Source: Candidatus Multivorans sp. (GTDB taxonomy: Bacteria > Acidobacteriota > Thermoanaerobaculia > Multivoradales > Multivoraceae). Taken from it: a stretch of 64,000 nucleotides of DNA. The translations under genes and the position numbers were made by a program. The notes under the pieces are model-generated. The model did no database searches, was not told the DNA's origin, and worked only from the letters and a program-made list of their open reading frames with translations. Positions 2 through 16,468 of this stretch are shown here, piece by piece (position 1 is the first letter of the stretch; every line of letters starts with the position of its first letter). The stretch lies in NCBI GenBank assembly GCA_965224025.1, contig OZ245033.1:672001-736000 (forward strand). The letters are read 5' to 3'.

Positions 2-526
2 GCTCTGATTGCTGCCTTGCTTGTCGCCGCGTTGCCGTTGGCCGCCGAAGACGCGGAGTCGACGGAGCATTTGCTCGAGCCGGACACGATCCACCCGGCG
101 ACTGCCGACCAGTTCCGCGTCGTGCTGGAGCACCACCGGGGCAAGGTGGTGATCGTCAACTACTGGGCCACCTGGTGCATCCCCTGCCTGCAGGAGCTGC
201 CCGAGCTCGACCTGCTGCAGGAGCGCTACGGTGAGCGCGGTCTGGTGGTGATCGCCGTCTCGATGGACGATCCGGACAAGCTCGAGGACCGCGTGCGGCC
301 GTTCTTCGCCAAGCGGGCGCCGGGCCTTGTCTCCTATCTGGCCACAGCCGGCGACAACTCGATGGACTTCGTGACCTCGTTCGATCCCGAGTGGCCCGGG
401 GCGCTGCCGACAACCATGTTCTTCGACCGGAGCGGAGAACTGAAGAACGTTCATCTCGGACGGATGCTGTACGCGGAGTTCGAGGAGGCCGTACTCGAGT
501 TGCTCGATGCCGACGGGGGATCCTGA
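2..526 (+). CDS. TlpA/ResA-family thiol-disulfide oxidoreductase (5' end truncated by window edge)
   Basis: NYWATWCIPC CxxC motif and LPTT cis-Pro motif; frame open from position 2 with a hydrophobic signal-like segment. Confidence 0.85.
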   Translation, partial: ALIAALLVAALPLAAEDAESTEHLLEPDTIHPATADQFRVVLEHHRGKVVIVNYWATWCIPCLQELPELDLLQERYGERGLVVIAVSMDDPDKLEDRVRPFFAKRAPGLVSYLATAGDNSMDFVTSFDPEWPGALPTTMFFDRSGELKNVHLGRMLYAEFEEAVLELLDADGGS

Positions 527-607
527 CCCAGAGCCCGGAAGTTGCCGGTTGCTTCCCGGTGTTGTCGGTTCTTGACGCCGAGACAGTGGCGCTTAGGAGG
601 GACCCGA

Positions 608-1720
608 ATGTCAGACTCGGTCTTCGAGCACTTCGACTTCGCCGACGAGTACGGGCCGGAGAAGGTCGTCACCGTCCATGAACCCCGCTGCGGCCTGCAA
701 GGGATCGTGGTGATCGACAACAGCGCCGCCGGACCCACGATGGGCGGCATCCGCATGGCGCCGGACGTCACCGTAGAGGAGGTATGCCGGCTGGCGCGGG
801 CCATGACCTGGAAGAACGCGATGGCCCGCCTGCGTCACGGCGGCGGCAAGGCGGGCATCCGCGCCGATCCGCGTACGCCGAACCGGGAGGCCCTGGTGCG
901 GCAGTTCGGCCGCGCGATCCGGCGGTTGGCCGACTACATCCCGGCCCCGGACATGGGCACCGACGAGACCGCGATGGCCTGGATTCGAGACGAGGGCGGC
1001 CGCTCGGTCGGCCTGTCCAAGGCGCTGGGCGGGATTCCTCTCGACGAGGTGGGTTCCACCGGTTACGGCCTCGCCATCGCCGCCGAGGTGGCCGAGGAGG
1101 CGGGCGTTGTGAGACTCGAAGGCGCCACGGTCGGGGTCCAGGGTTTCGGCAACGTCGGTCGGCCGGCGGCCCGCTTCCTGGCCGAGCGGGGCGCGCGGCT
1201 CGTCGCGGTCACCGATCTCGACGGCACGATCCATGACCCGGACGGCATCGACATCGACGAACTCGTGGCAACGATGGAGGCGGCCGGCGGCGTGACCGCT
1301 TACCCGCGCGGCCGCCGGGTGGAAGGCGACGCCTTCCTGGACCTGGAGGTCGACTTCTTCGTGCCGGCGGCGCGTCCGGATGTGATCGACAGCGGCAACG
1401 CCGGCCGCGTTGGCTGCAAGGTCGTGCTCCAGGGGGCGAACATCCCGGTCACGCCGGCCGGCGAGCGGATTCTTCACGACCGTGGCGTCCTCTCGATTCC
1501 CGACTTCGTCGCCAATGCCGGCGGCATCATCTGCGGCGCCGTCGAGTACGCGGGCGGTTCGGAGAGACAGGCGTTCGAGAGAATCGAGGACACGGTGCGC
1601 GAGAACACCCGCGAGGTGCTGGAACTGGCCCGGACCGAGGGATGCCTGCCGCGCGAGGCGGCGATGGGCCTGGCCCAGCGGCGCGTCGCGGAAGTGATGG
1701 CCTACCGGCGCGCCGACTGA
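608..1720 (+). CDS. Glu/Leu/Phe/Val amino-acid dehydrogenase
   Basis: GGIRM, GGGKAGI, PAPDMGT, GFGNVG and PDFVANAGG motifs; AGGAGG RBS at 595-600 before ATG 608. Confidence 0.9.
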   Translation: MSDSVFEHFDFADEYGPEKVVTVHEPRCGLQGIVVIDNSAAGPTMGGIRMAPDVTVEEVCRLARAMTWKNAMARLRHGGGKAGIRADPRTPNREALVRQFGRAIRRLADYIPAPDMGTDETAMAWIRDEGGRSVGLSKALGGIPLDEVGSTGYGLAIAAEVAEEAGVVRLEGATVGVQGFGNVGRPAARFLAERGARLVAVTDLDGTIHDPDGIDIDELVATMEAAGGVTAYPRGRRVEGDAFLDLEVDFFVPAARPDVIDSGNAGRVGCKVVLQGANIPVTPAGERILHDRGVLSIPDFVANAGGIICGAVEYAGGSERQAFERIEDTVRENTREVLELARTEGCLPREAAMGLAQRRVAEVMAYRRAD

Positions 1721-1740
1721 AGCGCGGAACTCGAGAACGA

Positions 1741-2670
1741 ATGAGGCCCCACAACGCGCTCGCCGAAGCCGCCGTCGACCGGCGGTCGGAGCGCCGCGGC
1801 GACTCCGATTGGCTGGCGGGGCGCCTCGCCGACCCCGACAACCTGCTGACTGTCGTGTGGCGGGAGCGCAGCCTGGTCATCGACGCCCATGGCGATCGCG
1901 CGCCGGCGCCTGGGACGGTGCCCGTGACCGCGGCGCCGGCGCTGGTCGAGCAGACGGAGGAACTCGTCTACCTGGGCGACGCGGGCGGGCGGAGTTACTT
2001 CTCGATCGACCTCTCCGATCGGGACGATCCGCTTTCGGGCGCGTTGCGCGGCGCTGGTCGGCTGGTCGAGCTGCGCCAGGTCGGCGCCGCGATGAGCGGT
2101 ACGGACGGCAACCTGCTCGCCTACGCGCGCGCGATGGCGACCTGGCACCGGCGCCACCGCTTCTGCGGCCGATGCGGCGCCTCGACCTCAAGCCGGAACG
2201 CCGGCCACTTGCGGATATGCACCGGCTGCGGCGCCGAGCACTTTCCGCGCACGGACCCCGCGGTGATCATGCTGGTTAGTACGTCGAGCGGCGGCGACGA
2301 CTCCTGCCTGCTCGGACGCCAGACCGCCTGGCCGCCCGGGATGTTCTCGGCCCTGGCCGGCTTCGTCGAACCGGGTGAGAGCCTGGAGAGCGCCGTGGCG
2401 CGCGAGGTCCAGGAGGAGACCGGCATCGCCGTCGACACCGTGGAGTACCACTCCTCCCAGCCGTGGCCCTTCCCGACCTCGATCATGCTCGGCTTCTACG
2501 CCACGTCCCCGGGCGGCGACGTGCGGGTGGACACCGAGGAACTCGAGCACGCGGTCTGGGTGCGCCGCTCCGACCTCGAGTACGCGCTTAGAGCCCGCGA
2601 AGTACGGTTGCCGCCGCCCTTCTCGATTGCCCGCCGGCTGATCGACGACTGGCTGCGCCGAGAGACGTAG
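1741..2670 (+). CDS. nudC: NAD+/NADH diphosphatase (Nudix)
   Basis: Zn ribbon FCGRCG..CTGC, FPRTDPAVI, Nudix box GFVEPGESLESAVAREVQEETG, SQPWPFP signature. Confidence 0.93.
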   Translation: MRPHNALAEAAVDRRSERRGDSDWLAGRLADPDNLLTVVWRERSLVIDAHGDRAPAPGTVPVTAAPALVEQTEELVYLGDAGGRSYFSIDLSDRDDPLSGALRGAGRLVELRQVGAAMSGTDGNLLAYARAMATWHRRHRFCGRCGASTSSRNAGHLRICTGCGAEHFPRTDPAVIMLVSTSSGGDDSCLLGRQTAWPPGMFSALAGFVEPGESLESAVAREVQEETGIAVDTVEYHSSQPWPFPTSIMLGFYATSPGGDVRVDTEELEHAVWVRRSDLEYALRAREVRLPPPFSIARRLIDDWLRRET

Positions 2671-2673
2671 CCC

Positions 2674-2698
2674 CTGGCAACGCGGGCGTTTCGCCCGC
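2674..2698 (+). repeat. REP-like palindrome, family A (CTGGNNNCGCGGG...CCCGC)
   Basis: ctggcaacgcgggcgtttcgcccgc; related copies at 7469-7493 (-), 37792-37817, 45794-45816, 50075-50100 and 50209-50234 (-). Confidence 0.65.
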
Positions 2699-2763
2699 AT
2701 CCGGGCCATCCCGGGAACGCGGCGAGCCCGTTTCATGCGCTGCTGGCGTAGCATTGTCCTTCC

Positions 2764-3810
2764 ATGGCCCTCGACTCCACGAACGGCGCCGCCGGCAGCC
2801 AGCCGATCGACCGCCTGGGACGGCCGATCCGCGATCTGCGCATCTCGGTCATCGACCGTTGCAACTTCCGCTGCACCTTCTGCATGCCGGCGGACCGGGA
2901 GTACCGGTTCCTGCCCCGGCAGCAGTTGTTGACGTTCGAGGAGATCGAACGCCTGGTGCGGCTGTTCGTCGAACTCGGCGTCCGCAAGCTGCGCCTGACC
3001 GGCGGTGAACCCCTGTTGCGGCGGGACATCGAGGAACTCGTCCGGATTCTGGCCGACGTGCCCGGAATCGAGGGCTTGGCGCTGACCACGAACGGCGCTC
3101 TGCTCGGCGCCAAGGCGCAGGCGCTCGCCGAGGCCGGGCTCGACCGGGTCACGGTCAGCGTCGAGTCCCTGCAGGACGACGTCTTCGGCCGCGTCAACGG
3201 TCTAGGGCACGGCGTGCAGCAAGTGCTCGACGGTATCGACGCCGCGGCCGACGCCGGTCTCGGCCCGATCAAGATCAACGCGGTGGTCATGAAGGGCACC
3301 AACGAGGACGAGGTCGCCGACATCGCCGGCTACTTCAAGGAGCGCGGCCACATCGTCCGCTTCATCGAGTTCATGGATGTCGGCACGGTCAACGACTGGA
3401 GCCTCGACCGGGTGGTTTCGGCCGCCGAAATCACCGACCGGATCGCCAAACGCTGGCCCTTCGAACCGCTCGACCGCGCCCAACCGAGCGACGTCGCCGA
3501 GCGCTTCCGCTACCTCGACGACGGCGTCGAGTTCGGCGTCATCTCCTCGATCTCCCGCCCCTTCTGCGGCGACTGCGCCCGCGCCCGCCTGTCGTCGGAC
3601 GGCCGCCTCTACACCTGCCTGTTCGCCGACACCGGCCCCTCGATCCGCGATCGCCTACGCGCCGGCGTGACGGATGAAGAGCTGCTCGCCTTCCTGGCGG
3701 AGCACTGGGGCCAGCGGGAAGATCAGTACTCCGAGATCCGCGCCGAGCGGCTTCGCGCCGGCCTGCAGCCGGCGCCCGAGCGGGTCGAGATGTTCCGCAT
3801 CGGCGGCTGA
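2764..3810 (+). CDS. moaA: GTP 3',8-cyclase (molybdenum cofactor biosynthesis, radical SAM)
   Basis: LRISVIDRCNFRCTFCMP, LTGGEPLLR, FCGDCARARL, C-terminal IGG. Confidence 0.96.
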   Translation: MALDSTNGAAGSQPIDRLGRPIRDLRISVIDRCNFRCTFCMPADREYRFLPRQQLLTFEEIERLVRLFVELGVRKLRLTGGEPLLRRDIEELVRILADVPGIEGLALTTNGALLGAKAQALAEAGLDRVTVSVESLQDDVFGRVNGLGHGVQQVLDGIDAAADAGLGPIKINAVVMKGTNEDEVADIAGYFKERGHIVRFIEFMDVGTVNDWSLDRVVSAAEITDRIAKRWPFEPLDRAQPSDVAERFRYLDDGVEFGVISSISRPFCGDCARARLSSDGRLYTCLFADTGPSIRDRLRAGVTDEELLAFLAEHWGQREDQYSEIRAERLRAGLQPAPERVEMFRIGG

Positions 3811-3844
3811 GTCGGCTGCGGCACGGCGCCGCGTGGCTGCTGCG

Positions 3845-3956
3845 CGGCGTGGCGGTTGGTCGTCGGTTCATGAGAGGTCGTTGGCCGTCGCTTGCCGACA
3901 GCCTCGTTGGGACCCTCCCCTCCGACCCCTGGGGCAGGCTGGACGGCGTCGGGCTT
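3845..3956 (-). repeat. degenerate dispersed repeat, family C (inverted relative to 7557-7690)
   Basis: 3932-3956 matches the reverse complement of 7557-7581 at 24/25; weaker similarity continues upstream. Confidence 0.6.
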
Positions 3957-4074
3957 CCATGGCCTCGTCAGCCGGCGGTCCGACAGACTCCTCAGCAGGA
4001 CTGACTCGAGTGCTTGCCCAGTGGTCTTCCCTCCGTCTTCGGCACTGAAGTAGCCAGGAAAGAGGAACGCCCCC

Positions 4075-4571
4075 ATGTCTGATCTCGACAGTCTGCTGAG
4101 CGACGATCGCCGCGCGCGACTGCTTCCGACTCCCGGATCGAAGAGTGAGCGAGCGTTTACTTCCATTCTGCTTGCGACGATGACAGTCGTGCGTCCGTTC
4201 GCTCGCCAACTGTTGAAGAGTTGGGGCGTGTCGATGCACAAGACCTCGGACTTGCGTGCGTACACGGAGGTCGGGTTTGAAGTGACTGGGCGGCGTAATA
4301 GTGTTCGCCCTGATGGCGTTCTGGTTCTATCCACACGCAAGCGCCGGTGGACTGCTCTCGTCGAAGCGAAGGTCGGCGGGCGATCGTCAGGGATGTTGCG
4401 GGTCGGTTTTCGAAGAGACGGGTGTTTGTACAGGGTTTGGAGAAACTGATTCCGACGTTCTACGACCAGGTCGGCCAGCGACTTCGGTCCTGGAGGCCGC
4501 CGCCTCCGAGGATAGATCCGAGCGGTGCAGTGGCCGGAGCGGCAGTAGCTGAGGCACCTGAACAGGTTTGA
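4075..4571 (+). pseudogene. internally deleted remnant of a PD-(D/E)XK nuclease-like / 'stress response' protein
   Basis: N-part ARLLP..ERAFTSILLA..YTEV.F..RPDGVLVL..WTALVEAKVG, then frame break; C-terminal-like piece FYDQVGQRLRSWRPPPP in another frame ending 4571; GAGG RBS. Confidence 0.6.
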
Positions 4572-4703
4572 GGCTGAGCGGCGCTCTTGGCAGTGGTAGG
4601 TAGAGCGGGTTCAGAGGCACGTTTGGTCGTCGTGGGCGGACGGTCGTTCGAGCACGAGACCGCTACCATGTCGCCGACTGGCTGGTCCGGACGGACTGCG
4701 AGG

Positions 4704-6679
4704 CTAGTCCGAAGTTCTGAGCGTTCCGGGGTCTCGGGCGGTGCGTCGGGCCTTGTCCCAGTTGGGTTTCTGGGCGGCGGGCACCGTTTTCTTCCTGGCA
4801 AGTGTAGCCATGTATCTGGGTAAGTGGCGATAGACATACGGTTGTTGTCGGCTACAATCAGAAGCCATGTACATCGAAAGCGTACCCAACCGCAACTCGC
4901 CGCCCGCCGTCCTCCTGCGAGAGTCCTACCGACAGGACGGAAAGGTCAAGAAACGCACCCTCGCAAACCTCTCCAAGTGGCCCGATCAACTCGTCGAAGG
5001 ACTCAGAACTCTGCTCAAGGGAGGCATAGCCCTCCCCTCCCTCGACGACGCCTTCCAGATCGTGCGGGCCAAGCCCCACGGACACGTCGCCGCCGTCCTC
5101 GGCACAATCAGAAAACTCGGCCTCGAACGACTGCTCGACCGCAGACCCTCGCCGCAGCGGGCGCTCGTCGTCGCCATGATCGCCGCGCGCATCCTCGAAC
5201 CGCGGTCCAAGCTCGCCACCGCCCGAGGACTCGCCAGCGAAACCGCCAACCACACCCTCGCCGAGGAACTCGGCGTCGAAGACCCCTCCGACGACGACCT
5301 CTACGACGCCATGGACTGGCTGCTCTTTCGCCAGCCGAAGATCGAACGCGGCCTCGCCAAGCGGCATCTCGAAGACAGCTCGCTCGTCCTCTGCGACCTG
5401 ACCTCGGTCTACCTCGAAGGCAGAGAGAGCCCGCTGGCCAGACACGGCTACTCCAGGGACAAGAAGCGGGGCAAGCTCCAGATCGTCTTCGCCCTGCTCT
5501 GCAACCGGGAGGGATGCCCGGTGGCCATCGAGGTCTTCGAGGGCAACACCGCCGATCCAGGCGCGCTGAGCAGCCAGGTGCACAAGCTCCGCGACCGCTT
5601 CTCGCTGGATCGGGTCATCGTCGTCGGCGACCGCGGACTGATCACCAACGCCCGCATCGAGGAGGACCTCGAACCCGCCGGCCTGTCCTGGATCAGCGCG
5701 CTGCGCGCGCCTCAGATCCGCACCCTGGCCGAGCAGGGCCGCCTGCAACTGTCGCTCTTCGACCAGCGGGACATGGCGGAGATCAGCGTCCCGGAGCTGT
5801 ACCCCAAGGAACGCCTGATCGTGTGCCGGAACCCGCTTCTGGCGGCCGAGCGGCGCCGCAAGCGTCTGGACCTGCTCGACAGGACCGACGAACTCCTCGA
5901 AGCCGTCGAGAAGGCCACGAAGCGAAAGAACAGGCCGCTGCGCGGCAGCAAGGACATCGCTGTCAGAGCCGACCGCGCCCTGTGCAAGTACAAGGTCGGC
6001 AAGCACTACGACATCGAGGTCGCGGACGACGGCTTCAACTGGCGCCGCAACGAGGAGCGCATCGACGAGGAAGCGGCCCTCGACGGCCTCTGCGTTATCC
6101 GAACCAACGTCCCGGAGGCCGACCTGCCCGCCGACGAGACCGTCCGCTCCTACAAGAGTCTCAGCCGCGTCGAACGAGCCTTCCGCAGCCTAAAGAGCGT
6201 CGACCTCAAGGTGCGCCCCGTGCATCACCGGCTCGCCGGCCGCGTGCGCGCCCATGTCCTCCTCTGCGTCCTCGCCTACTACGTCGAGTGGTACATGCGA
6301 AGACGCCTCGCGCCCATCCTCTTCGACGACGACCGGAAGACCGACGACCGCGCGTCGCCCGTCCAGCCGGCGCGGAAATCGAACGCCGCCAAGGCCAAGG
6401 CCAACTCCGGCCGCACCGCCGACGGACTCCCCGTGCACAGCTTCCAGACACTTCTCGACGACCTCGCCACCCTGACCAGAAACCGCGTCAGGATGCCGGG
6501 CAGCGACGCGGCGACCGCCAACGTCCTCGCTCGGCCCACCCCGCTCCAGGACGAGGCCTTCAGACTCCTCGACGTACGACCCTGACAGGAGCGTACCCAG
6601 TACCGGACACAACCGAATCCACGACAAGCCCCGTACCTACAAGGGATTCCTCAGCTTGATGCTCAGAACTTCGGACTAG
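4704..6679 (+). mobile_element. complete IS1634-family insertion sequence
   Basis: Perfect 19-bp inverted repeat ctagtccgaagttctgagc (4704-4722) / gctcagaacttcggactag (6661-6679); the outer CTAG is either a TSD or the TIR tip. Confidence 0.9.
4867..6585 (+). CDS. IS1634-family DDE transposase
   Basis: MYIESVPNRNSPPAVLLRESYR N-terminus, CDLTSVYLEG, GYSRDKK, VGDRG, YKSLSRVERAFRSLK, RPVHH; 572 aa, uninterrupted. Confidence 0.92.
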   Translation: MYIESVPNRNSPPAVLLRESYRQDGKVKKRTLANLSKWPDQLVEGLRTLLKGGIALPSLDDAFQIVRAKPHGHVAAVLGTIRKLGLERLLDRRPSPQRALVVAMIAARILEPRSKLATARGLASETANHTLAEELGVEDPSDDDLYDAMDWLLFRQPKIERGLAKRHLEDSSLVLCDLTSVYLEGRESPLARHGYSRDKKRGKLQIVFALLCNREGCPVAIEVFEGNTADPGALSSQVHKLRDRFSLDRVIVVGDRGLITNARIEEDLEPAGLSWISALRAPQIRTLAEQGRLQLSLFDQRDMAEISVPELYPKERLIVCRNPLLAAERRRKRLDLLDRTDELLEAVEKATKRKNRPLRGSKDIAVRADRALCKYKVGKHYDIEVADDGFNWRRNEERIDEEAALDGLCVIRTNVPEADLPADETVRSYKSLSRVERAFRSLKSVDLKVRPVHHRLAGRVRAHVLLCVLAYYVEWYMRRRLAPILFDDDRKTDDRASPVQPARKSNAAKAKANSGRTADGLPVHSFQTLLDDLATLTRNRVRMPGSDAATANVLARPTPLQDEAFRLLDVRP

Positions 6680-6906
6680 TGAAGGAGGTCGCGAACGCCT
6701 GCATCACGAAGTCGCCTGGCAGTTGGAGCAGGTGAAAGGGAGATCCGAGGACTGAGAAGAATAGCGGTCAGCCGACGCGGCTAGGTCCAGTGCACTCCGC
6801 GCACCGTCAACCAGCCATCGGAAGGTACGCCTTCATGAAGTGCTCCACAATCTTCTCCCTTCTCCTCCTCTGCGCGCTACCGGCCGTCGCCGATCGGCGA
6901 GGGGAG

Positions 6907-7020
6907 TCACCCCAGCTTGGACAGCTTCAGGTGAGACCCGACTTGGCCGCTCTCGCGAAAGCCGAGCTCCTTGAATGCCGTGACCAGCTTTTTCGTACTA
7001 ACCGGCGAGAGCCTGGGCAT
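6907..7020 (-). pseudogene. hicA: truncated HicA-family toxin (37 aa)
   Basis: MPRLSPVSTKKLVTAFKELGF..GSHLKL is the HicA N-half with the GSH motif; stops before the usual C-terminal 'VP.H' half; start overlaps the hicB 3' end. Confidence 0.7.
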
Positions 7021-7309
7021 GGGGGACCATATTGACCGGCACGGACACCGTGTCTTGTGGAGCGGCATGGTCCACGGCGTTCGCGGTGACCCGCACCTCC
7101 AGACCGCTCTCTTCGAGAACACGGTCCATGATCCCCTCCTCGCAGCAGCCCTCGATGAACAGGGCCATCGCCTCCTGCAGCATGGCCAAGGCTTCCCGGT
7201 GGGTAGAACCTTGGCTTGCCACGTGGAGTTGTGGACACGATGCGACCCATGTGTCGCGCTCACGGTGCAGTTCCGCGGGGAACTTGATGTTGACGCCGAC
7301 CCGGCTCAT
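6998..7309 (-). CDS. hicB: HicB-family antitoxin
   Basis: WVASCPQLHVASQGSTHREALAMLQEAMALFIE is the HicB motif; GAGGAG RBS upstream of ATG 7309. Confidence 0.8.
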   Translation of the reverse strand: MSRVGVNIKFPAELHRERDTWVASCPQLHVASQGSTHREALAMLQEAMALFIEGCCEEGIMDRVLEESGLEVRVTANAVDHAAPQDTVSVPVNMVPHAQALAG

Positions 7310-7468
7310 GGGCTCGCTCCTCAGTCCGCGGAGCAGCGTAACATGGTGCCAGCGCATCCTGCGCCGCTCCGTGGTTTGGGCTTGATGCCGGCCAGAAGGC
7401 GGCCGCACCGGCGGTCGGCTTGTCGGGACGCCACTGCCAAGACCGATGCGCCCTCACTGCGGGCAAGT

Positions 7469-7493
7469 GCGGGCGAGACGCCCGCGTTCCCAG
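7469..7493 (-). repeat. REP-like palindrome, family A
   Basis: gcgggcgagacgcccgcgttcccag hairpin. Confidence 0.7.
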
Positions 7494-7556
7494 GACGCGG
7501 ATCGCGCCACCCGGGTTCCCCAGGGACGAGCTGTGACATCGGAGACAGAGCCGCCA

Positions 7557-7690
7557 AAGCCCGACGCCGTCTAGCCTGCCCAGGTGGCTCGGAGCGAGCG
7601 ACGGCCGGCGCCCCTTCAACTACCAACGACCGACCGGAGCGAGCGTAGTGCAGTGAGCGCACCCCCGTTCATTTCTCCGACCAAGCGCGA
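7557..7690 (+). repeat. degenerate dispersed repeat, family C
   Basis: cccaggtg..cgagcg.cggcc..accggagcgag.g.ag.g.agtgagcgc..caagcgc shared with 11454-11562; reverse partial copies at 3845-3956 and 37541-37595. Confidence 0.6.
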
Positions 7691-7693
7691 ATC

Positions 7694-7760
7694 CAGGTGG
7701 CGCGTTCCGCGCCACCTGTGAACCAGTCCGTGCGCCGGTCAGCGGGCGCACGGATGGCAC
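7694..7760 (+). repeat. double-hairpin repeat, family D, copy 1
   Basis: caggtggcgcg/cgcgccacctg stem, gaaccag linker, tccgtgcgcc/ggcgcacgga stem, tggcac tail. Confidence 0.75.
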
Positions 7761-7954
7761 GGCACCTGGGCACCCTCCCCCCGGAGCCCCGACCAGGCAG
7801 GCGGGTGCAACCGACGACCCTTCGCCGCTCCGCTCCGCGCCGCACCGCGCCGCCGCTGCCCGGCCGATGCCCTATCTGCGGCAACCGCTCCGCTTACGCG
7901 GCCGAATTCCGGTACAGTGCCGCGCATGTGTCGCCGCATCATTGGGGCGGTCGC

Positions 7955-8998
7955 GTGAGTACCCGGCCCCTGTTGGCGGCCGCCGAGGGCGAGCGGGACC
8001 GAAAGGCTGAACACATCCGCCTGGCGCTGGATCGGCGCATGCAGGTGGAGCGCAGCTACTTCGACGACTACCGGTTCGAGCATCGGGCGCTGCCGGAGAT
8101 CGACTTCGACGATGTGCGGATCGGCACGGCGTTTCTGGGGCGGGAACTGAAGGCGCCGCTGCTCATTTCGTGCATGACCGGGGGCACGGGGGTTGCGGAG
8201 CAGATCAACCGGCGGCTTGCGGAGGCGGCCGAGGCTGGTCGCGTCGCTCTGGGAGTCGGGTCGCAGCGCAAGGCGATCGACGATCCGGAGACGGCGGCGA
8301 CGTTTCGGGTCCGGGAGTTCGCGCCCAACGTGCCGATTCTCGCCAACCTGGGCGCGGTGCAACTGAACTACGGCTACGGCATCGACGAGTGCCGGGCGGC
8401 GGTCGACATGGTCGAAGCGGACGCCCTGGTGCTGCACCTGAACGCGTTGCAGGAGACGCTCCAGCCGGAGGGGCAGTTGAACTTCCGCGGCCTGCTGCCG
8501 AAGATCGCGCGGGTGGTCGAAGCGATGGAGGTGCCGGTGATCGTCAAGGAGATCGGTAGCGGCATTTCGGCGGCGGTCGGCCAGGAGCTCGCCAACGTCG
8601 GCGTGCGGATTCTGGACACGGCGGGCGTGGGCGGTACGAGCTGGGCGCGGATCGAGGCCGCGCGGGCGGACGAGATCGCACTAGGCGAGCGCTTCGCCGA
8701 CTGGGGGTTGCCGACGCCGGAGTCGATCCGCCAGTTGGCGCAGGTGCCCGGCGTGCAGGTGATCGGCAGCGGCGGCATCCGGTCGGGCATCGACGCGGCG
8801 AAGGCGCTGGCGCTGGGCTCCGACGTCGCCGGCATGGCCTTCCCGTTCCTGGAGGCTGCGAACGCGTCGACCGCCGCGGTGGTCGATCGGATCGATCGTA
8901 CGGCCTTCGAGCTGCGCACCTGCATGTTCTGCACCGGCGCGGTGGACGTGGAGGCACTGCGCCGGGCGCCCCTTCGGCGAGGACGCGGCGATGGCTGA
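7955..8998 (+). CDS. fni: type 2 (FMN-dependent) isopentenyl-diphosphate isomerase
   Basis: RKAEHI, ISCMTGG, GVGSQR, ANLGAVQL, HLNALQE.LQPEG, VKEIGSG, GGTSW, SGGIRSG motifs; GTG start chosen. Confidence 0.94.
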   Translation: MSTRPLLAAAEGERDRKAEHIRLALDRRMQVERSYFDDYRFEHRALPEIDFDDVRIGTAFLGRELKAPLLISCMTGGTGVAEQINRRLAEAAEAGRVALGVGSQRKAIDDPETAATFRVREFAPNVPILANLGAVQLNYGYGIDECRAAVDMVEADALVLHLNALQETLQPEGQLNFRGLLPKIARVVEAMEVPVIVKEIGSGISAAVGQELANVGVRILDTAGVGGTSWARIEAARADEIALGERFADWGLPTPESIRQLAQVPGVQVIGSGGIRSGIDAAKALALGSDVAGMAFPFLEAANASTAAVVDRIDRTAFELRTCMFCTGAVDVEALRRAPLRRGRGDG

Positions 8999-10250
8999 TC
9001 GACTGAGTCCCGAGCTCGAGGCGGCGGCGGCCGAGGTCGCCGGCGCCGAGCGCGGCTTCCATCGGTTGCCGGCGGACCTCGACGCGGCCGGCAAGGCCGC
9101 GGTCCGACGGCGCGCCCTTGACCTCGCGAGCGGCAGCGGGCCGCTCAGCGCCATCGGCAGCTACACCCTGGACGACGAACGCTCCTCCACCCAGCACTGC
9201 GAGAACTTCATCGGCGCCGCGCAGGTGCCGATGGGTGTTGCCGGTCCGGTCCTGGTGCGGGGCAGCGAGATCGACGGCACGGTCAGCGTGCCGATGGCGA
9301 CCACCGAGGGCGCCCTGCTCGCGAGCGTGAACCGCGGCTGCCGCGCGATCACTGCGGCCGGCGGCGCCACCGTCTTCGTCGAGGACGTCGGCATGACCCG
9401 GGCGCCGGTCTTCCGCACCGCGGGGATCGAGGAGACCCGTCGCCTGCTTGATTGGCTGCGGGCGAAGGAGGAAACGATCCGGGCCAAGGCCCAGGAGACG
9501 AGCCGGTACCTGAAATTGCTGGAGATCCGTCCCTCGGTGGTCGGCAGCACGGTCTTCCTGCGGTTCCGCTTCGCCACCGGCGATGCGATGGGCATGAACA
9601 TGGTGACGATCGCCTGCGACCGCGTGGTGTCCGAGCTGATCGAACCGGAGACCGGCGTCGAGTGCGTCGCGCTTTCCGGCAACTACTGCGTCGACAAGAA
9701 GCCTTCGGCGGTCAACTACCAGCTCGGCAGGGGCAAGAGGATTCACGCCGAGGTCGTGCTCGACGAGCTGACCGTGCGCAAGGTGCTGAAGTCGGAGGCC
9801 AAGGCGCTCCAGGATGTGGCCTACCGCAAGAACCTGCTCGGTTCGGTGGCGGCCGGCGCGCTTGCGTTCAACGCGCAGTTCGCCAACGTGCTCGCGGCGG
9901 TGTTCGTGGCCTGCGGCCAGGACGTTGCCCACGTGGTCGAGGGCGCGATGGGAGTCGCCTCGTTCGAGGCGCGCGACGACGGTTCGGTCTACGCCTCGGT
10001 CTACATGCCGGATTGCCCGCTGGCGGCGATCGGCGGCGGCACGGGTCTGGACACCCAGCGCGAAGCGCTCGCCGTGATGGGCGTGCGGCCCGACCCGGAC
10101 CGGCCCGGTGCGGCGGTGCGGCGCCTGGCGGAGATCGTCGGCGCGGTCGTTCTCGCCGGGGAGCTGTCGCTCACCGCGGCGTTCACCTCGCGCGACCTGG
10201 CGAGGGCACACGAGCGGCTGGCCCGCTCCGACCCGGCGAACCCGGACTGA
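8991..10250 (+). CDS. hmgA: class I (archaeal/eukaryote-type) HMG-CoA reductase
   Basis: CENFIG, PMATTEGAL.AS, TGDAMGMNM, SGNYCVDKKPSAVN (class I cis-loop), GQD.AHVVE, GELSL..A..L.RAH. Confidence 0.93.
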   Translation: MADRLSPELEAAAAEVAGAERGFHRLPADLDAAGKAAVRRRALDLASGSGPLSAIGSYTLDDERSSTQHCENFIGAAQVPMGVAGPVLVRGSEIDGTVSVPMATTEGALLASVNRGCRAITAAGGATVFVEDVGMTRAPVFRTAGIEETRRLLDWLRAKEETIRAKAQETSRYLKLLEIRPSVVGSTVFLRFRFATGDAMGMNMVTIACDRVVSELIEPETGVECVALSGNYCVDKKPSAVNYQLGRGKRIHAEVVLDELTVRKVLKSEAKALQDVAYRKNLLGSVAAGALAFNAQFANVLAAVFVACGQDVAHVVEGAMGVASFEARDDGSVYASVYMPDCPLAAIGGGTGLDTQREALAVMGVRPDPDRPGAAVRRLAEIVGAVVLAGELSLTAAFTSRDLARAHERLARSDPANPD

Positions 10251-10259
10251 TCGCCGCCC

Positions 10260-11390
10260 ATGGCCGACGCCAGAACGGTGCGGCTGAGCGTGCCCGGCAA
10301 GGTCATCCTGATGGGCGAGCACGCGGCTGTGTACGGCCGGCCGGCGGTGGTGGCGGCGGTTGACCTGCGTCTCACGGTGGAGGCGTGTGTGGGATCGGCG
10401 GCCGCCACGAGCGGCGGCGAGGTCCACATCGATATGCCCGACATCGGGGTTGAAGAGCAGCATTCTTGGACGGCGGTGGCGAACTTCGCGAAGCGGGCGC
10501 GCCGGCGCTGGCTTGCCTTCAGAGCGGGCGAGGAGCCGTTCTCCGTGAATCGGGACCGCGGCGCTCTGGTTCGCATCGCGGTTGGCGAGGCGCTCGCTTC
10601 GCTGACGCCGCTGGCTTCGGCAGGGCTGCGGGAACGGCATCTGGAACTGAGGTTGCGTTCGTTGATTCCGGTCGGGGCCGGCCTGGGCAGTTCGGCGGCA
10701 GCCGCGGTGGGAGTAGTTTCGGCGATTCGCGCAGCTTCGTCGGCGATGTTGGGCGGGAGCGTTGAGCCGGCCGCAGCTTTCGCACAGGCCGAGGTCGCCG
10801 CGATCGAGTCCACGGCGCTGGAAGTCGAGCGGCGGCAGCACGGGTTCCCGTCGGGCATCGACAGCGGCACGGTCCTGCGGGGCGGTGTTCTCCTGATACG
10901 CGACAGAGGGGGCGACCTGCGGTTCGACGACTTGCCCCAGCGGGAGTGGCTTCGAAGCGGGATCCGGATCGTCGACAGTGGCACGCCGGGCCAAACGACG
11001 GGTGCCGTGGTGACGACTGTTCGTCGGCGATACGAGGAGAATCCGGAACGGGTTGACGTGGTGCTCGACCGGATCGGTTCGGCCGTCGATGCCTTTCGCG
11101 TGGCCCTGGTCGACGATCGGCGTCGCGACGCGGTGGCGGCGATCTCGGCCGCTCATGGGGCTCTGGTCGATCTCGGCGTCGTGCCGGGCGCCATCGCTGA
11201 ACGCATCGCAAGGATCGAGGCCGCCGGCGGCGCCGCCAAGATCTCGGGCGCCGGGGCGCTCGAGGGCGAATCGGCGGGAGCGCTGATCTGCATGCTCCGG
11301 GGACGTGAGCCGGAAACGATCGAAGGCTTGTCGGATCTCGCACCGGTCGATGCGCCCATCGGGGCGGACGGCCTGCGGTTCGAGGACTGA
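10260..11390 (+). CDS. mvk: mevalonate kinase
   Basis: PGKVILMGEHAAVYG, GHMP motif PVGAGLGSSAA, HG.PSGID, AKISGAG. Confidence 0.88.
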   Translation: MADARTVRLSVPGKVILMGEHAAVYGRPAVVAAVDLRLTVEACVGSAAATSGGEVHIDMPDIGVEEQHSWTAVANFAKRARRRWLAFRAGEEPFSVNRDRGALVRIAVGEALASLTPLASAGLRERHLELRLRSLIPVGAGLGSSAAAAVGVVSAIRAASSAMLGGSVEPAAAFAQAEVAAIESTALEVERRQHGFPSGIDSGTVLRGGVLLIRDRGGDLRFDDLPQREWLRSGIRIVDSGTPGQTTGAVVTTVRRRYEENPERVDVVLDRIGSAVDAFRVALVDDRRRDAVAAISAAHGALVDLGVVPGAIAERIARIEAAGGAAKISGAGALEGESAGALICMLRGREPETIEGLSDLAPVDAPIGADGLRFED

Positions 11391-11434
11391 GCTAGGCCAG
11401 GACGGAGACTCGCGCACCGACGTCCAGCCCAGTC

Positions 11435-11595
11435 GGGTCAGGAGGGGTCGGCTCCCAGGTGCCTCTGAACGAGCGCCGGCCAACGCCCTCCCAGGAACCG
11501 ACGCCCAACCGGAGCGAGTGAAGCGGAGTGAGCGCCACCCCCTCCCATCTCCTCTCAAGCGCTCACGTCACCTGGGAGCAGACCCCTCCTGACCC
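11435..11595. repeat. 161-bp intergenic element with 27-bp inverted ends, containing a family C core
   Basis: gggtcaggaggggtcggctcccaggtg (11435-11461) vs cacctgggagcagacccctcctgaccc (11569-11595), one mismatch. Confidence 0.75.
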
Positions 11596-11697
11596 AAGAC
11601 GGGCGGGTGCGTCCTCCGCCGCTACACGCGCCGTCGCCGGCGCACTCAGTTCTGGCGCGCACGCGGTGGAGTGCGGCTGTAGGCTCGGAATCGAGTC

Positions 11698-12762
11698 ATG
11701 GAGTCCACCCTCGTACCGGTGCGCGAGCCGGGTCCGGTGACCGCGGAGGCGCCGTCGAACATCGCCTTCATCAAGTACTGGGGCGCTCGCGATCTCGAAG
11801 GCGATTCTGAAGGTCCCGTGCCGTTCAACCGATCGCTGTCGATGACCCTCCGCGCGTGCCGGTCCATCTGTTCGGCGTCGCCGCTCGCGGACGGCAAGGA
11901 GGACGAAGTCTGGTGGCTGGACAAGCCGGCCGGCGACCGGCCGGGCGCGCCCGCCCCGCCGCCCCCGGCCTTCGTCGAGCGCACCAGGCGGCACCTCGAC
12001 CGGCTGCGCGAGTGGTCTCGTCAGACGGCCGCGCCGTACGCAGGCGGGTTCCGGATCGCGACCTGCAACACCTTCCCGACGGCTGCCGGAATCGCCTCGT
12101 CGGCCTCTGGTTTCACCGCCCTGACGCTTGCCGTAGCGACCTGCATGGGCTTCGACCTGGCCCCGCGAACGCACTCGGAGCTGTCGCGGAGAAGCGGTTC
12201 GGGTTCGGCCGCGCGTTCCGCATGGGGTGGCTACGTGGAGTGGCCAGATGTCGACGGCAACGCGGCTGTCCAGATCCTCGACGAGCGGGCCTGGGTGCTG
12301 TGCGATCTGGTCGCCGTCGTCGAGACCGGGGCGAAGAAGGTGTCGTCGCGGGACGGCCACCGGCGGGCCGAGAGCAGTCCGTACTTCGCGCCGCGCCTCG
12401 CTGCGCTCGACGGGCGGCTGGAGCGGGTGCGCGCCGCGCTGCGCGACCGCAACTTCAAGGCGCTCGGCGACGCGGTCGAGGAGGAGGGGATCGATCTGCA
12501 CCTGATCGCGATGTCCTCCCGGCCGCCGGTCTACTACTGGTCGCCGGGGACGATCGAGGTGCTGGCGGCTGTTCGTGGCTTGCGCGCCGACGGCGTTGCC
12601 GCCTACGCCACGATGGACGCCGGCGCGAACGTTCACGTGATCTGCCGGCCGGCCGATGCGCCGCAGGCGGCGGACCGGCTGGAGGCGCTCGACAGCGTCG
12701 AGTACGTCCTGCGCGATCGCACGGGCGGCCCGCCGGTGTGGCGAAGCGGCGCCGAGCTCTGA
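11698..12762 (+). CDS. mvaD: MvaD-family decarboxylase, probably phosphomevalonate (mevalonate-5-P) decarboxylase
   Basis: APSNIAFIKYWG, P.N.SLSMTL, FPTAAGIASSASGF, SGSGSAARS, T.DAG.NVHVI; substrate inferred from adjacent IPK and absent PMK. Confidence 0.85.
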   Translation: MESTLVPVREPGPVTAEAPSNIAFIKYWGARDLEGDSEGPVPFNRSLSMTLRACRSICSASPLADGKEDEVWWLDKPAGDRPGAPAPPPPAFVERTRRHLDRLREWSRQTAAPYAGGFRIATCNTFPTAAGIASSASGFTALTLAVATCMGFDLAPRTHSELSRRSGSGSAARSAWGGYVEWPDVDGNAAVQILDERAWVLCDLVAVVETGAKKVSSRDGHRRAESSPYFAPRLAALDGRLERVRAALRDRNFKALGDAVEEEGIDLHLIAMSSRPPVYYWSPGTIEVLAAVRGLRADGVAAYATMDAGANVHVICRPADAPQAADRLEALDSVEYVLRDRTGGPPVWRSGAEL

Positions 12763-12764
12763 CC

Positions 12765-13703
12765 ATGGCCGCCGGTTCGAGGCAGCAAGAGGGCGATACG
12801 CGGGGCCGGCTGGGCGTGACCCTGGTCAAGCTCGGCGGCAGCCTGATCACCGACAAGACGAAGCCGCGCACCGTCGAGCGGGAACGCGTGCGGCGGCTGG
12901 CGGCCGAGATCGCCGCCGGGTGGACGGGCGGCGGCCTGATCGTCGGCCACGGCAGCGGCTCCTTCGGTCATCCGGAAGCGCGGGCGGCCGGCCTGGTCGG
13001 AGGCGGGGGCGGCCGCCGGCTCGACTCGCTGGCGGACCGGATGGGCATCGCCCGCACGCAGTCCGCGGCGCAGGCCCTGCACCGGATGATCGTCTCCAGT
13101 CTGATCGACGCCGGCGTGCCGGCGTACTCCCAGCCGCCGTCCGGCTTCCTGGTGGCGGAGGACGGAAAGCCGCACGGCGATCCCCCCGCGCCCCTGGCCG
13201 AAGCTCTGCGGTTGGGCCTGGCGCCGGTGACCATGGGCGACGTGGCGATCGACCGCCGGCGCGGGGCGGCGATCGTCTCGACCGAGACCGTGTTCGAGTT
13301 TCTGGCCGGCGCGCTGCCGCCGCTCGGGATCGAGGTGCGGCGCGCCTTGTGGCTGGGCGTTGTGGCGGGCGTCCTGGATGACGCGGGCCGGCTGATTGCG
13401 CGCATCGACGCGACGAACATCGAGGCGGCTTCGGCGGCCGCCGGCGGTTCGGCGGCGGTCGACGTGACGGGCGGCATGGAGCACCGCCTGGTCACCGCCT
13501 GGCGTCTGGCCCGGGGCGGCGTGGAGTCGCTGATTCTCGACGGCCGCGAGCCGGGCCTGCTGGAGGCCGTGCTCCGGCATCCGGGGCGTGCGGCGGAAGG
13601 CGCCGGTACACTCGTCTGTTCCAGGGAACCCGGGTGGCGCAAGCTTGCGCCACCCGCGAACCAGTCCGAGCGCCCGTCATCGGGCGCTCGGAGGGAACGA
13701 TGA
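12765..13703 (+). CDS. ipk: isopentenyl phosphate kinase (amino-acid kinase fold)
   Basis: VKLGGSLITDK, GHGSGSFGH (IPK His signature), GDV, IVSTE, DVTGGM; starts 2 nt after the mvaD stop. Confidence 0.88.
   Translation: MAAGSRQQEGDTRGRLGVTLVKLGGSLITDKTKPRTVERERVRRLAAEIAAGWTGGGLIVGHGSGSFGHPEARAAGLVGGGGGRRLDSLADRMGIARTQSAAQALHRMIVSSLIDAGVPAYSQPPSGFLVAEDGKPHGDPPAPLAEALRLGLAPVTMGDVAIDRRRGAAIVSTETVFEFLAGALPPLGIEVRRALWLGVVAGVLDDAGRLIARIDATNIEAASAAAGGSAAVDVTGGMEHRLVTAWRLARGGVESLILDGREPGLLEAVLRHPGRAAEGAGTLVCSREPGWRKLAPPANQSERPSSGARRER
13627..13698 (+). repeat. double-hairpin repeat, family D, copy 2 (within ipk 3' end, just before mntR ATG)
   Basis: cgggtggcgc/gcgccacccg, cgaaccag, tccgagcgcccg-tcat-cgggcgctcgga. 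Confidence 0.8.
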
Positions 13704-14380
13704 CCATGCGCGCGAGCAGCACCGTCGAGGACTACTTGAAGTGCATCTTCCTGGCCGAGCAGGAGGCGCGGCAGAGGGGGCAAGACCTCGTGCCCATGGG
13801 CCATATCGCGGGTCTACTGGAGGTGGCGCCGGCTTCGGTCACCGCGATGATGAAGACTCTGGCCGAGTCCGGTCTCATCGCCTACGAGCCCTACAGCGGT
13901 GTACGGCTGGAGCCCGCGGGCCGCAAGCTGGCGGCGCACGTCCTCCGGCGGCACCGGCTGGTCGAGTTGTTTCTGGTCAACAAGATGGGCTTCGACTGGA
14001 GCGAGGTCCACTCCGAGGCCGAGCTGCTCGAGCACGCGGTTTCCGAACGGATGATCGAGCGGATGGACGAAATGCTGGGCCATCCGTCGGTCGACCCGCA
14101 CGGCGATCCGATCCCCAGCGCCGACGGCCATATCGAGATCGTGGACCATCCCAGCCTGCTGAAGTGCGCGCTGAACTGCACGGTCGAGGTGGTGCGGGTC
14201 ACCGATCAGGACGCTGAGTTCCTGCGCTTCGCCGAGCGCGAGGGTCTGGCGCCCGGGAAGTGGGTCGAGGTGGCGGCGCGGGACGAGACCGCGGGCAGCG
14301 TCGCGGTGATCTCCGGGACCAGGCAGCTCAGCCTGGGGTTCCCGGCCGCGTCCAGGGTTCTGGTGCGAGAGGCGCCGTGA
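13700..14380 (+). CDS. mntR: DtxR/MntR-family metal-dependent repressor with C-terminal FeoA-like domain
   Basis: TVEDYLKCI, V.PASVT.M.K.L, RRHRLVELFL, HSEAELLEH, DPHGDPIP; ATGA overlap with ipk stop. Confidence 0.88.
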   Translation: MTMRASSTVEDYLKCIFLAEQEARQRGQDLVPMGHIAGLLEVAPASVTAMMKTLAESGLIAYEPYSGVRLEPAGRKLAAHVLRRHRLVELFLVNKMGFDWSEVHSEAELLEHAVSERMIERMDEMLGHPSVDPHGDPIPSADGHIEIVDHPSLLKCALNCTVEVVRVTDQDAEFLRFAEREGLAPGKWVEVAARDETAGSVAVISGTRQLSLGFPAASRVLVREAP

Positions 14381-14417
14381 ACTGCGGCCACCTGCGGCCC
14401 GGTCTCGGGGGTTGGGA

Positions 14418-14923
14418 CTAGCCCGTCGTCTCGCCGGTTGGGGTGACCACGAACAGCGGATCGCCACCGTCGACGGTCTGACCGACCTCGACCAGGAGCT
14501 TGTCCAGCCGGCCATCGATTTCCGACTGGATCTCGTTCTCCATCTTCATCGCCTCGAGCACGAGGACGCCCTGGCCGGAGGCCACGTTCTCGCCTTTGAC
14601 GGCGAGCACCGCGGTGACCCGGCCGGGCATGTAGGCGGTGGCCTCGAACACGCCGTCCTCGGCCTGCTCTGCGGCGGCGGCGAAGTCCCGCGACCGGGCG
14701 TCGATCACCCGCAGTTCGGCGCCGTCGACGACGTAGACGCCCTTGCCGAGGGCGCGGACGCTCGCTGTGGCCTGGCGTCCTTCGACGATCACGCTCAGCA
14801 CGTCCGGACGGCCCACGGTCGCCGCGTCGACCCGGTACTCGCGGCCGTCGATGGCGATGGTCCAGTTGCCGTTCGTTTCGGCCTGGGCCTCGACCTGGAC
14901 TTCGCGGTCCGCGCTGGCGACGA

Positions 14924-14933
<10 letters not shown>
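14418..14933 (-). CDS. biotin carboxyl carrier protein
   Basis: AYMPGRV..EAMKMENEI biotinylation motif. Confidence 0.9.

Positions 14934-16468
<1,535 letters not shown>

Follow-up and report, generated by a model that had tools for sequence, protein, structure and literature searches.

Positions 672,001 to 736,000 of contig OZ245033.1 (assembly GCA_965224025.1, Candidatus Multivorans sp.), a 64,000-nucleotide (nt) stretch referred to in its entirety as the window, carry a run of five genes for isoprenoid precursor synthesis, fni-hmgA-mvk-decarboxylase-ipk. All five are intact, co-oriented on the plus strand between positions 7955 and 13703, and free of internal stops. Together they would constitute a mevalonate operon of the type known from haloarchaea and Chloroflexi, which relies on an isopentenyl phosphate kinase (IPK) and in which phosphomevalonate kinase (PMK) has no part. 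The genes, with the lengths of their products and the scores of the curated profile models, are the following.

7955–8998, plus strand: fni, type 2 isopentenyl-diphosphate isomerase (IDI-2), 347 amino acids (aa); TIGR02151, 387.4 bits against a cut-off of 281.3
8991–10250, plus strand: hmgA, class I HMG-CoA reductase (HMGR), 419 aa; TIGR00533, 422 bits, narrowly below the cut-off of 441.8
10260–11390, plus strand: mvk, divergent mevalonate kinase (MVK) of the GHMP family, 376 aa; TIGR00549, 144 bits
11698–12762, plus strand: MvaD-like GHMP decarboxylase, read as phosphomevalonate decarboxylase (PMD), 354 aa; TIGR01240, 190.2 bits against 171.35
12765–13703, plus strand: ipk, isopentenyl phosphate kinase, open reading frame (ORF) of 312 aa; NF040647, 134.3 bits against a cut-off of 120

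The preliminary description of the window had already reported five co-oriented and mostly tightly spaced genes, and the coordinates bear this out: fni and hmgA overlap by 8 nt, 9 nt lie between hmgA and mvk, 307 nt between mvk and the decarboxylase gene, and a mere 2 nt between the latter and ipk. The GTG start of fni at position 7955 is plausible since the copies in relatives likewise encode 347 residues. Pfam assignments are consistent for all five products, curated models are clear for four of them, and the G+C content of the operon equals that of the surrounding sequence. The arrangement is by no means confined to this host. A sample of 301 Acidobacteriota genomes, which includes the host (G000) and three unpublished genomes (G024, G049 and G152) that are counted in denominators only, yielded 22 fetched loci, and the same gene order is kept in 19 of them; as one operon it spans eight or more of the sampled family codes (f1–f5, f13, f32 and f47). 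The exceptions are G196, where 4 kb separate mvk from the decarboxylase gene and the fetched stretch stops before fni and hmgA; G176, whose fetched stretch holds the decarboxylase-ipk pair only; and G153, which runs into a contig end. Contigs from one RNA-library run (X23) are 90–95% identical to parts of fni, hmgA, the decarboxylase gene and ipk, with none over mvk; they derive from a relative, and such libraries can contain DNA, hence they do not demonstrate transcription.

The fni product exceeds the cut-off of the type 2 isomerase model and also matches Pfam FMN_dh. The hmgA product scores 376.7 bits with Pfam HMG-CoA_red (PF00368) and only 38 bits with the class II model TIGR00532, and its solved relatives are all class I, led by 6hr7 (340 bits) and followed by plant and human class I enzymes. 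Its predicted membership of class I, as originally proposed, is thus clear although the curated TIGR00533 cut-off is narrowly missed. For the mvk product, all ten of ten solved matches are mevalonate kinases, the top one at 61 bits, while the PMK model gives 11.8 bits only; it is the sole MVK candidate in the operon, and its membership of the mevalonate kinase family is likely by homology yet unproven. The ipk product exceeds the IPK cut-off, its six best solved matches are all IPKs, and it carries the motifs KLGGSLITDK, GHGSGSFGH, PVTMG and DVTGG, in which the KLGGS and His-signature motifs quoted in the first description are found again. Read by motif spacing and not from a structure alignment, these motifs agree with all 11 residues that Dellas 2013 gives as invariant in Table 2 (K6, G8, G9, K15, G54, H60, P140, G144, D213, T215 and G216), a list that includes the catalytic His. 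The protein is accordingly an IPK and not some other amino-acid kinase; in particular, a FomA/FosC fosfomycin kinase is ruled out by scores of 45 bits for FosC and 31 bits for FomA, against 134.3 for the IPK model. The conserved part of the product stops near residue 271 of 312.

The fourth gene encodes the enzyme on which the reading of the pathway turns. Its product matches Pfam MVD-like_N and MDD_C, and it was compared with its homologues in an alignment of 109 decarboxylases from fetched loci, sorted by whether the neighbouring gene encodes an IPK or a PMK. D307 (the DAG aspartate), K213 and R173 are invariant or nearly so in alignment A1, and the GHMP decarboxylase fold, the catalytic Asp and the ATP-loop Lys are all present. 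D307 aligns with the DAG aspartate of 6n0x, the structure of Anaerolinea thermophila PMD with mevalonate 5-phosphate (Aoki 2022, PMC9254496), which is probably Asp280 of the literature, the numbering offset being inferred. Whether such a fold acts on mevalonate diphosphate, as a diphosphomevalonate decarboxylase (DMD), or on mevalonate 5-phosphate, as a PMD, has been connected to a small number of side chains. According to Table 4 of Dellas 2013 (PMC3857490), Lys21 of the Staphylococcus epidermidis enzyme helps to bind the terminal phosphate of mevalonate diphosphate, and it is replaced in PMD-type enzymes. A criterion set out in a 2024 study (PMC11052028) likewise takes a conserved lysine to mark DMD and a conserved histidine to mark PMD. 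Thomas et al., as related in Aoki 2022 (PMC9254496), altered the specificity of Anaerolinea PMD by mutagenesis, and the engineered variant 6n0z differs from wild-type 6n0x exactly at the Lys and His marker positions.

At both positions the window enzyme is PMD-like: Ala30 occupies the Lys21-equivalent position, directly after YWG, and His221 the histidine position. In this it follows its context. None of 44 IPK-linked enzymes has a lysine at the Lys21-equivalent position (Ala in 29, Asn in 8, Thr and Val in 2 each, and Ile, Gln and Arg in 1 each), while all 29 PMK-linked enzymes have Lys (26) or Arg (3). The histidine is found in 45/45 IPK-linked enzymes, in 6/29 PMK-linked ones, and is replaced by Met in 2/29 of the latter. 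The preliminary description had pointed to the KKVSSRDGH...SSPYF segment, which is present, and to its GH in place of the GM of staphylococcal enzymes. That contrast is real, yet given these counts it is a weak discriminator, and the lysine after YWG is the better marker. The enzyme thus lacks the DMD lysine and keeps the PMD histidine, and it has neither the Lys21-equivalent nor the PMK partner of a DMD. The public records of its relatives name the protein ‘diphosphomevalonate decarboxylase’. In a protein library clustered at 50% identity, six relatives (P0125, P0145, P0159, P0173, P0232 and P0268) have lengths of 608–733 aa and carry the decarboxylase in their C-terminal half, which suggests fusions with an upstream pathway enzyme.

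A PMD would leave no role for PMK, and none was found. The host genome (5.14 Mb, three contigs) has a completeness rating of 100% and a contamination of 5.66%, and the absence of PMK first noted for the operon and the window extends to all of it: the ERG8/Gram-positive model TIGR01220 gives 17.6 bits at best, the animal-type model PF04275 has no match, and the six GHMP kinases over the Pfam N-terminal-domain cut-off are Mvk, the decarboxylase, IspE, ThrB (homoserine kinase), GalK and an HddA-like sugar kinase. TIGR01220 falls under its curated cut-off even in control genomes expected to hold PMK. Since the model is insensitive relative to its cut-off, reliance is placed instead on the contrast between PMK and IPK within the phylum. 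Among the 301 genomes, IPK is over its cut-off in 26 and the decarboxylase in 29, with an overlap of 24. In 23 of these 24 double carriers the genes are direct neighbours, the exception being G042, where the decarboxylase match is a fragment far from ipk, and a PMK at E ≤ 1e-8 occurs in none of the 24. The five genomes with a decarboxylase and no IPK (G018, G079, G165, G192 and G256) all have a PMK homologue (45–105 bits) directly downstream; their detection indicates that the search is able to see acidobacterial PMKs. In this sample the decarboxylase is therefore paired with either PMK or IPK, never with both, and the context of a PMD, with IPK and without PMK, is found in the host and in 24/24 carriers; the genomes are related to each other, so that the counts are not independent events. 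Several classical-type loci (L104, L105, L106 and L119, of G165, G256, G018 and G192, and also L069 and L083) have an additional ORF of 750–800 aa after the decarboxylase and PMK genes, which shows a weak HMGR profile match (224–310 bits), touches kinase profiles, and may be a fusion protein.

The phylogeny of the decarboxylase separates these two contexts. A quick maximum-likelihood tree was built from 107 of the 109 aligned rows, L015 and L109 being left out as truncated. All 33 acidobacterial IPK-linked decarboxylases, together with one metagenome-assembled genome (MAG) labelled Gemmatimonadota, fall into one starred clade (SH-aLRT 98; 100, also starred, in a 47-row subset). IPK is next door in 33 of its 34 rows, and the remaining row stops at a contig end. 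The neighbours of the clade are a long-branched Oligoflexales row, a group of Herpetosiphon and candidate phyla radiation (CPR) sequences, and Chloroflexota clades. Among the Chloroflexota sequences, L081 matches the solved Anaerolinea PMD (6n0x) at 452 bits, which ties the Chloroflexota side of the tree to an enzyme that has been assayed. The decarboxylases of the five PMK-type acidobacterial genomes lie elsewhere, grouped with Calditrichota, Myxococcota, Balneolota and Gammaproteobacteria rows in another starred clade (99). Monophyly of all acidobacterial rows is rejected, being 144.9 log-likelihood units worse with an approximately unbiased (AU) p of 8e-06 (47 of the 107 rows, LG+G4), in a test whose group was chosen after the first tree had been seen. 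The root of the tree was not inferred, hence the tree carries no claim on a donor or a direction of transfer.

The same tree places the host. The closest decarboxylases in public databases belong to ‘Candidatus Multivorans sp.’ (90% identity) and ‘Ca. Multivorans azotirespirans’ (80%), other close ones are labelled ‘Thermoanaerobaculia bacterium’ and ‘Acidobacteriota bacterium’, and these records interleave with the same-genus genomes. As NCBI taxonomy lists Ca. Multivorans in Acidobacteriota, Thermoanaerobaculia, Ca. Multivoradales, the original impression of an acidobacterial host, as opposed to a Chloroflexota, proves correct. Beyond the phylum, decarboxylase-ipk pairs without the DMD lysine (L021, L035, L046, L062 and L080) were seen in single MAGs whose labels are Gemmatimonadota, Gammaproteobacteria, Planctomycetota, Microgenomates and Beckwithbacteria. 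The one labelled Gemmatimonadota carries all five genes of the operon and sits within the acidobacterial clade; MAG labels are taken as given. From the pairing in MAGs labelled Planctomycetota, Gammaproteobacteria, Gemmatimonadota and CPR, the PMD/IPK route is likely to be wider in bacteria.

A further line of evidence comes from the other route to isopentenyl diphosphate (IPP), the methylerythritol phosphate (MEP) pathway, one gene of which lies in the window.

56515–57700, minus strand: dxr, an open frame; TIGR00243, 361 bits against 315.7, with the match at 56530–57699

The host is not purely mevalonate-based: DXR, a fused IspDF, IspE, IspG and IspH are all over their cut-offs in its genome, and DXR is present in all ten other same-genus genomes tested (5/5, 4/4, and G206). 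DXS was not found in the host by any of three approaches: its TIGR model gives at most 46.9 bits, the DXS N-terminal Pfam domain has no match, and tblastn with DXS of the same order has no match at E ≤ 1e-3. Nor does DXS occur at E ≤ 1e-20 in any of 11 same-genus genomes, and a true DXS is present in only 1 of 17 relatives, G311, which itself is without DXR. The closed same-genus genome G303 is without IspD and IspF while keeping DXR. The mosaic suggests a decaying MEP pathway, the functional route being the one encoded by the mevalonate operon. An MTA-isoprenoid shunt as a substitute for DXS is not supported, since the RuBisCO-like protein that this shunt to DXP would require was not found.

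Across the phylum, DXR is present in 280/301 genomes. The 21 without it comprise 13 carriers of decarboxylase and IPK (G131, G176, G266, G021, G039, G069, G082, G093, G130, G142, G153, G164 and G285, the last assigned by elimination as the one unlisted genome), one PMK-type genome (G165) and seven others, four of which are less than 80% complete. IspH is absent in 5/5 DXR-less carriers tested, which are 95–100% complete. With neither DXR and IspH nor PMK in these relatives, the decarboxylase and IPK are their only visible way to IPP. The DXR-less carriers are the strongest indirect support for a PMD reading of the clade, and the operon is probably indispensable to around half of the genomes that carry it.

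Together, these observations make it probable, at roughly 0.8, that the operon is a lower mevalonate operon of the haloarchaea/Chloroflexi type, without PMK, in a member of the Acidobacteriota (Thermoanaerobaculia, probably Ca. Multivorans). Its reading as PMD plus IPK may be called well supported, not proven. In the proposed route, HMG-CoA would be made by the HMG-CoA synthase candidate, a stand-alone gene at G000:C1:548284–549387 whose five best matches are all HMG-CoA synthase models, and the class I reductase HmgA would convert it to mevalonate. Mvk would then phosphorylate mevalonate to mevalonate 5-phosphate, which the MvaD-like enzyme, with ATP, would decarboxylate to isopentenyl phosphate. 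Ipk would phosphorylate the latter to IPP, and IDI-2 would equilibrate IPP with dimethylallyl diphosphate (DMAPP); PMK would have no part in the route. That the decarboxylase acts on mevalonate 5-phosphate, as the preliminary description had supposed, gains support from Ala30 and His221, from the absence of PMK and from the IPK partner. The operon, and not the DXS-less set of MEP genes, presumably supplies most of the IPP in this host.

A number of observations pull in the other direction. A preference of the decarboxylase for mevalonate 5-phosphate is deduced for a clade known from sequences alone. The protein exceeds the cut-off of the DMD model TIGR01240, and with 110.2 bits it is far under the cut-off of 475 of the PMD equivalog NF040704, a model that, judged by its matches, represents haloarchaeal PMD. 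At other positions of Dellas 2013 it is DMD-like, with the two serines of GSGS and those of VSS retained. The association of the lysine with gene context rests on 2–3 independent transitions on the tree, so few that statistical significance is beyond its reach, and a phylogeny-aware sign test gives p 0.5. Moreover, the Chloroflexota enzyme is described in PMC11052028 as a DMD with additional PMD activity, and dual specificity is thus possible. The best solved match of the window decarboxylase, Anaerolinea PMD at 183 bits against 145 for the Enterococcus faecalis enzyme, was at one point counted as evidence for PMD. It was dropped after the PMK-linked decarboxylase of G018, taken as a control, matched 6n0x/6n0z at 254–260 bits; since this exceeds the value of the window protein, a best match to Anaerolinea is not diagnostic. 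Elsewhere in the pathway, the mvk product is under the TIGR00549 cut-off (144 against 163), the HMG-CoA synthase candidate scores 243.9 bits at best, under its cut-off of 360, and the six MEP enzymes kept in the host mean that the operon need not be the sole route to IPP. The 215-bp element between mvk and the decarboxylase gene, described below, might break co-transcription.

The high TIGR01240 score and the retained serines of the DMD diphosphate pocket would also fit a classical DMD, in which case a non-homologous and unrecognised kinase would make mevalonate diphosphate and IPK would only salvage isopentenyl phosphate, much as lineages such as CPR have an IPK with no part for a PMD (Hoshino and Gaucher). 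Such an arrangement is distinctly improbable given that an alanine replaces the DMD lysine, that none of the 44 IPK-linked enzymes has this lysine, that neither a GHMP-type nor an animal-type PMK is found in the host genome, that ipk and PMK exclude each other beside the decarboxylase across 24 genomes, and that ipk starts 2 nt past the decarboxylase stop. The MEP genes over their cut-offs, with DXR in every other same-genus genome tested, suggest a different possibility: MEP could be the main route and the operon an accessory supply, for instance for a special terpenoid as in the mevalonate clusters of Streptomyces. This, too, is unlikely. DXS is missing from the host by three methods and from 11 same-genus genomes, closed G303 also lacks IspD and IspF, DXR is lost in 13/24 operon carriers, and the genes on either side of the operon include neither a terpene synthase nor a tailoring gene. 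Finally, the MvaD-like protein belongs to the same superfamily as mevalonate-3-kinase and has a weak match to NF040848 (29.8 bits), so that a relationship to that enzyme was considered. It is barely credible, as the cut-off of 440 is far off, a mevalonate 5-kinase homologue is encoded upstream, and D307, K213 and R173 are kept.

The PMD/IPK operon favoured here can be set beside three known arrangements, one of them the haloarchaea-type (alternative I) route of Chloroflexi. Exemplified by MPD and IPK of Roseiflexus castenholzii (Dellas 2013, PMC3857490) and by Anaerolinea PMD (6n0x, PMC9254496), that route likewise uses MVK, IPK and IDI-2 without PMK, and its GHMP decarboxylase is without the DMD lysine, as in the window. 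The window decarboxylase lies on the same side of the tree as the Chloroflexota enzymes, yet the acidobacterial enzymes form a separate starred clade. At position 30 the window enzyme has Ala where the Chloroflexi-type enzymes have Leu, Asn or Val, and it keeps both GSGS serines. In the window the five genes form one operon, whereas 26/35 Chloroflexota loci with a decarboxylase show no IPK within 3 kb, and the reductase is class I as opposed to the HMGR-II listed for Chloroflexi by Hoshino and Gaucher. The classical bacterial operon mvk-mvaD-mvaK2-fni, represented by Bacillaceae/Lactobacillaceae loci (L053, L060, L084, L086 and L091), resembles the window in combining MVK, a homologous decarboxylase and often IDI-2 in one operon. 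It has a PMK gene after the decarboxylase gene, no ipk, and a lysine at the YWG-K position, and the window differs in all three respects. Five acidobacterial genomes hold this classical type, with decarboxylases in another clade than that of the window. The third arrangement is haloarchaeal: Haloferax volcanii is reported to use a PMD and an IPK, a finding ascribed to VanNice in 2014. The proposed order of reactions is the same and there is likewise no PMK, but the window decarboxylase reaches only 110 bits on the haloarchaeal model NF040704, with its cut-off of 475; the decarboxylase tree contains no haloarchaeal sequence.

Yet another solution was encountered within the Acidobacteriota. In one genus of family code f18 (L122, L123 and L124), IPK occurs without an adjacent GHMP decarboxylase. 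At the G042 locus L122 (G042:C9:3336151–3352900, positions 257–8762), mvk and fni lie ~3 kb upstream of four consecutive genes, which encode a decarboxylase of the UbiD family (300 bits), a large (AcnX-like) and a small (DUF126; 173 bits against 163) subunit, and IPK (184 bits). This gene set is that of the ‘archaeal-type’ mevalonate route via trans-anhydromevalonate 5-phosphate. The sample therefore contains three lower mevalonate gene sets, namely PMD with IPK (24 genomes), the classical pair of PMK and DMD (5 genomes), and, in one genus, the archaeal type with AcnX-like dehydratase, UbiD-family decarboxylase and IPK. It is tempting, with a confidence that falls slightly short of even, to see in the Acidobacteriota a phylum in the course of rewiring its supply of isoprenoid precursors: the three lower mevalonate routes would all be present, MEP would be undergoing dismantling gene by gene in the order of the window, with the PMD/IPK operon replacing it, and the genus of the window, with its DXS-less set of MEP genes, would represent an intermediate.

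The operon and its surroundings include mobile and repetitive elements, as well as further genes.

4867–6585, plus strand: DDE transposase gene (PF01609), ~1.4 kb upstream of fni
11409–11623, no strand assigned: element of ~215 bp between mvk and the decarboxylase gene, resembling a miniature inverted-repeat transposable element (MITE), with long terminal inverted repeats
13626–13699, no strand assigned: double-hairpin repeat of ~74 bp, resembling repetitive extragenic palindromic (REP) sequences and overlapping the last ~25 codons of the ipk ORF
14418–16468, minus strand: biotin carboxyl carrier protein gene and biotin carboxylase gene, directly after a DtxR/MntR-like regulator gene

The upstream insertion sequence looks incidental since the G+C content of the operon matches its surroundings and the operon is conserved across the phylum. 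The MITE-like element has 33 other blastn matches in the genome, 12 of them at ≥82% identity over ≥200 nt, and folds into a long hairpin (−113.5 kcal/mol, z −5.4). A contig from a relative is without positions 11391–11656, that is, without the element, and the 307-nt gap between mvk and the decarboxylase gene is thus attributable to its insertion. The REP-like repeat is still more abundant, with 139 other blastn matches in the genome, and consists of two perfect GC-rich hairpins (−53.9 kcal/mol, z −5.9). It contributes the last ~25 codons of ipk, past the conserved domain, and coincides with a spike in metagenome contig depth and with many loose contig ends. The DtxR/MntR-like regulator ORF that follows, at 13634–14380, has its apparent 5′ end within the same repeat. 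An Rfam scan of positions 6500–15000 returned no match at E ≤ 0.1.

The route itself is a known one; the phylum is one where no description of it was found. Literature searches, which covered few subscription journals and no supplements, found no description of a PMD/IPK mevalonate route in Acidobacteria or Acidobacteriota, and a search on ‘Candidatus Multivorans’ found no paper. Chloroflexi was the sole bacterial phylum named, in agreement with the earlier statement that the pathway was not known from Acidobacteriota. Hoshino and Gaucher do not name Acidobacteria in their main text, one paper among the matches mentions Acidobacteria solely in the title of a lipid paper that it cites, and the passages on distribution in a 2022 review and in the 2024 study (PMC11052028) give haloarchaea and Chloroflexi. 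In the parts of reviews and evolutionary studies up to 2024 that treat the matter, Chloroflexi are the only bacteria with a PMD/IPK route, and scenarios for the origin of isoprenoids have been built on that distribution. A PMD/IPK operon across several acidobacterial families would change the picture of Chloroflexi as its only bacterial holders. It would also provide a second, independent bacterial clade of candidate PMDs in which the determinants of substrate specificity may be probed, and it flags what would be a systematic mis-annotation of the relatives named ‘diphosphomevalonate decarboxylase’. Such corrections would bear on how the presence of pathways is read in these abundant, mostly uncultured bacteria of soils and sediments.

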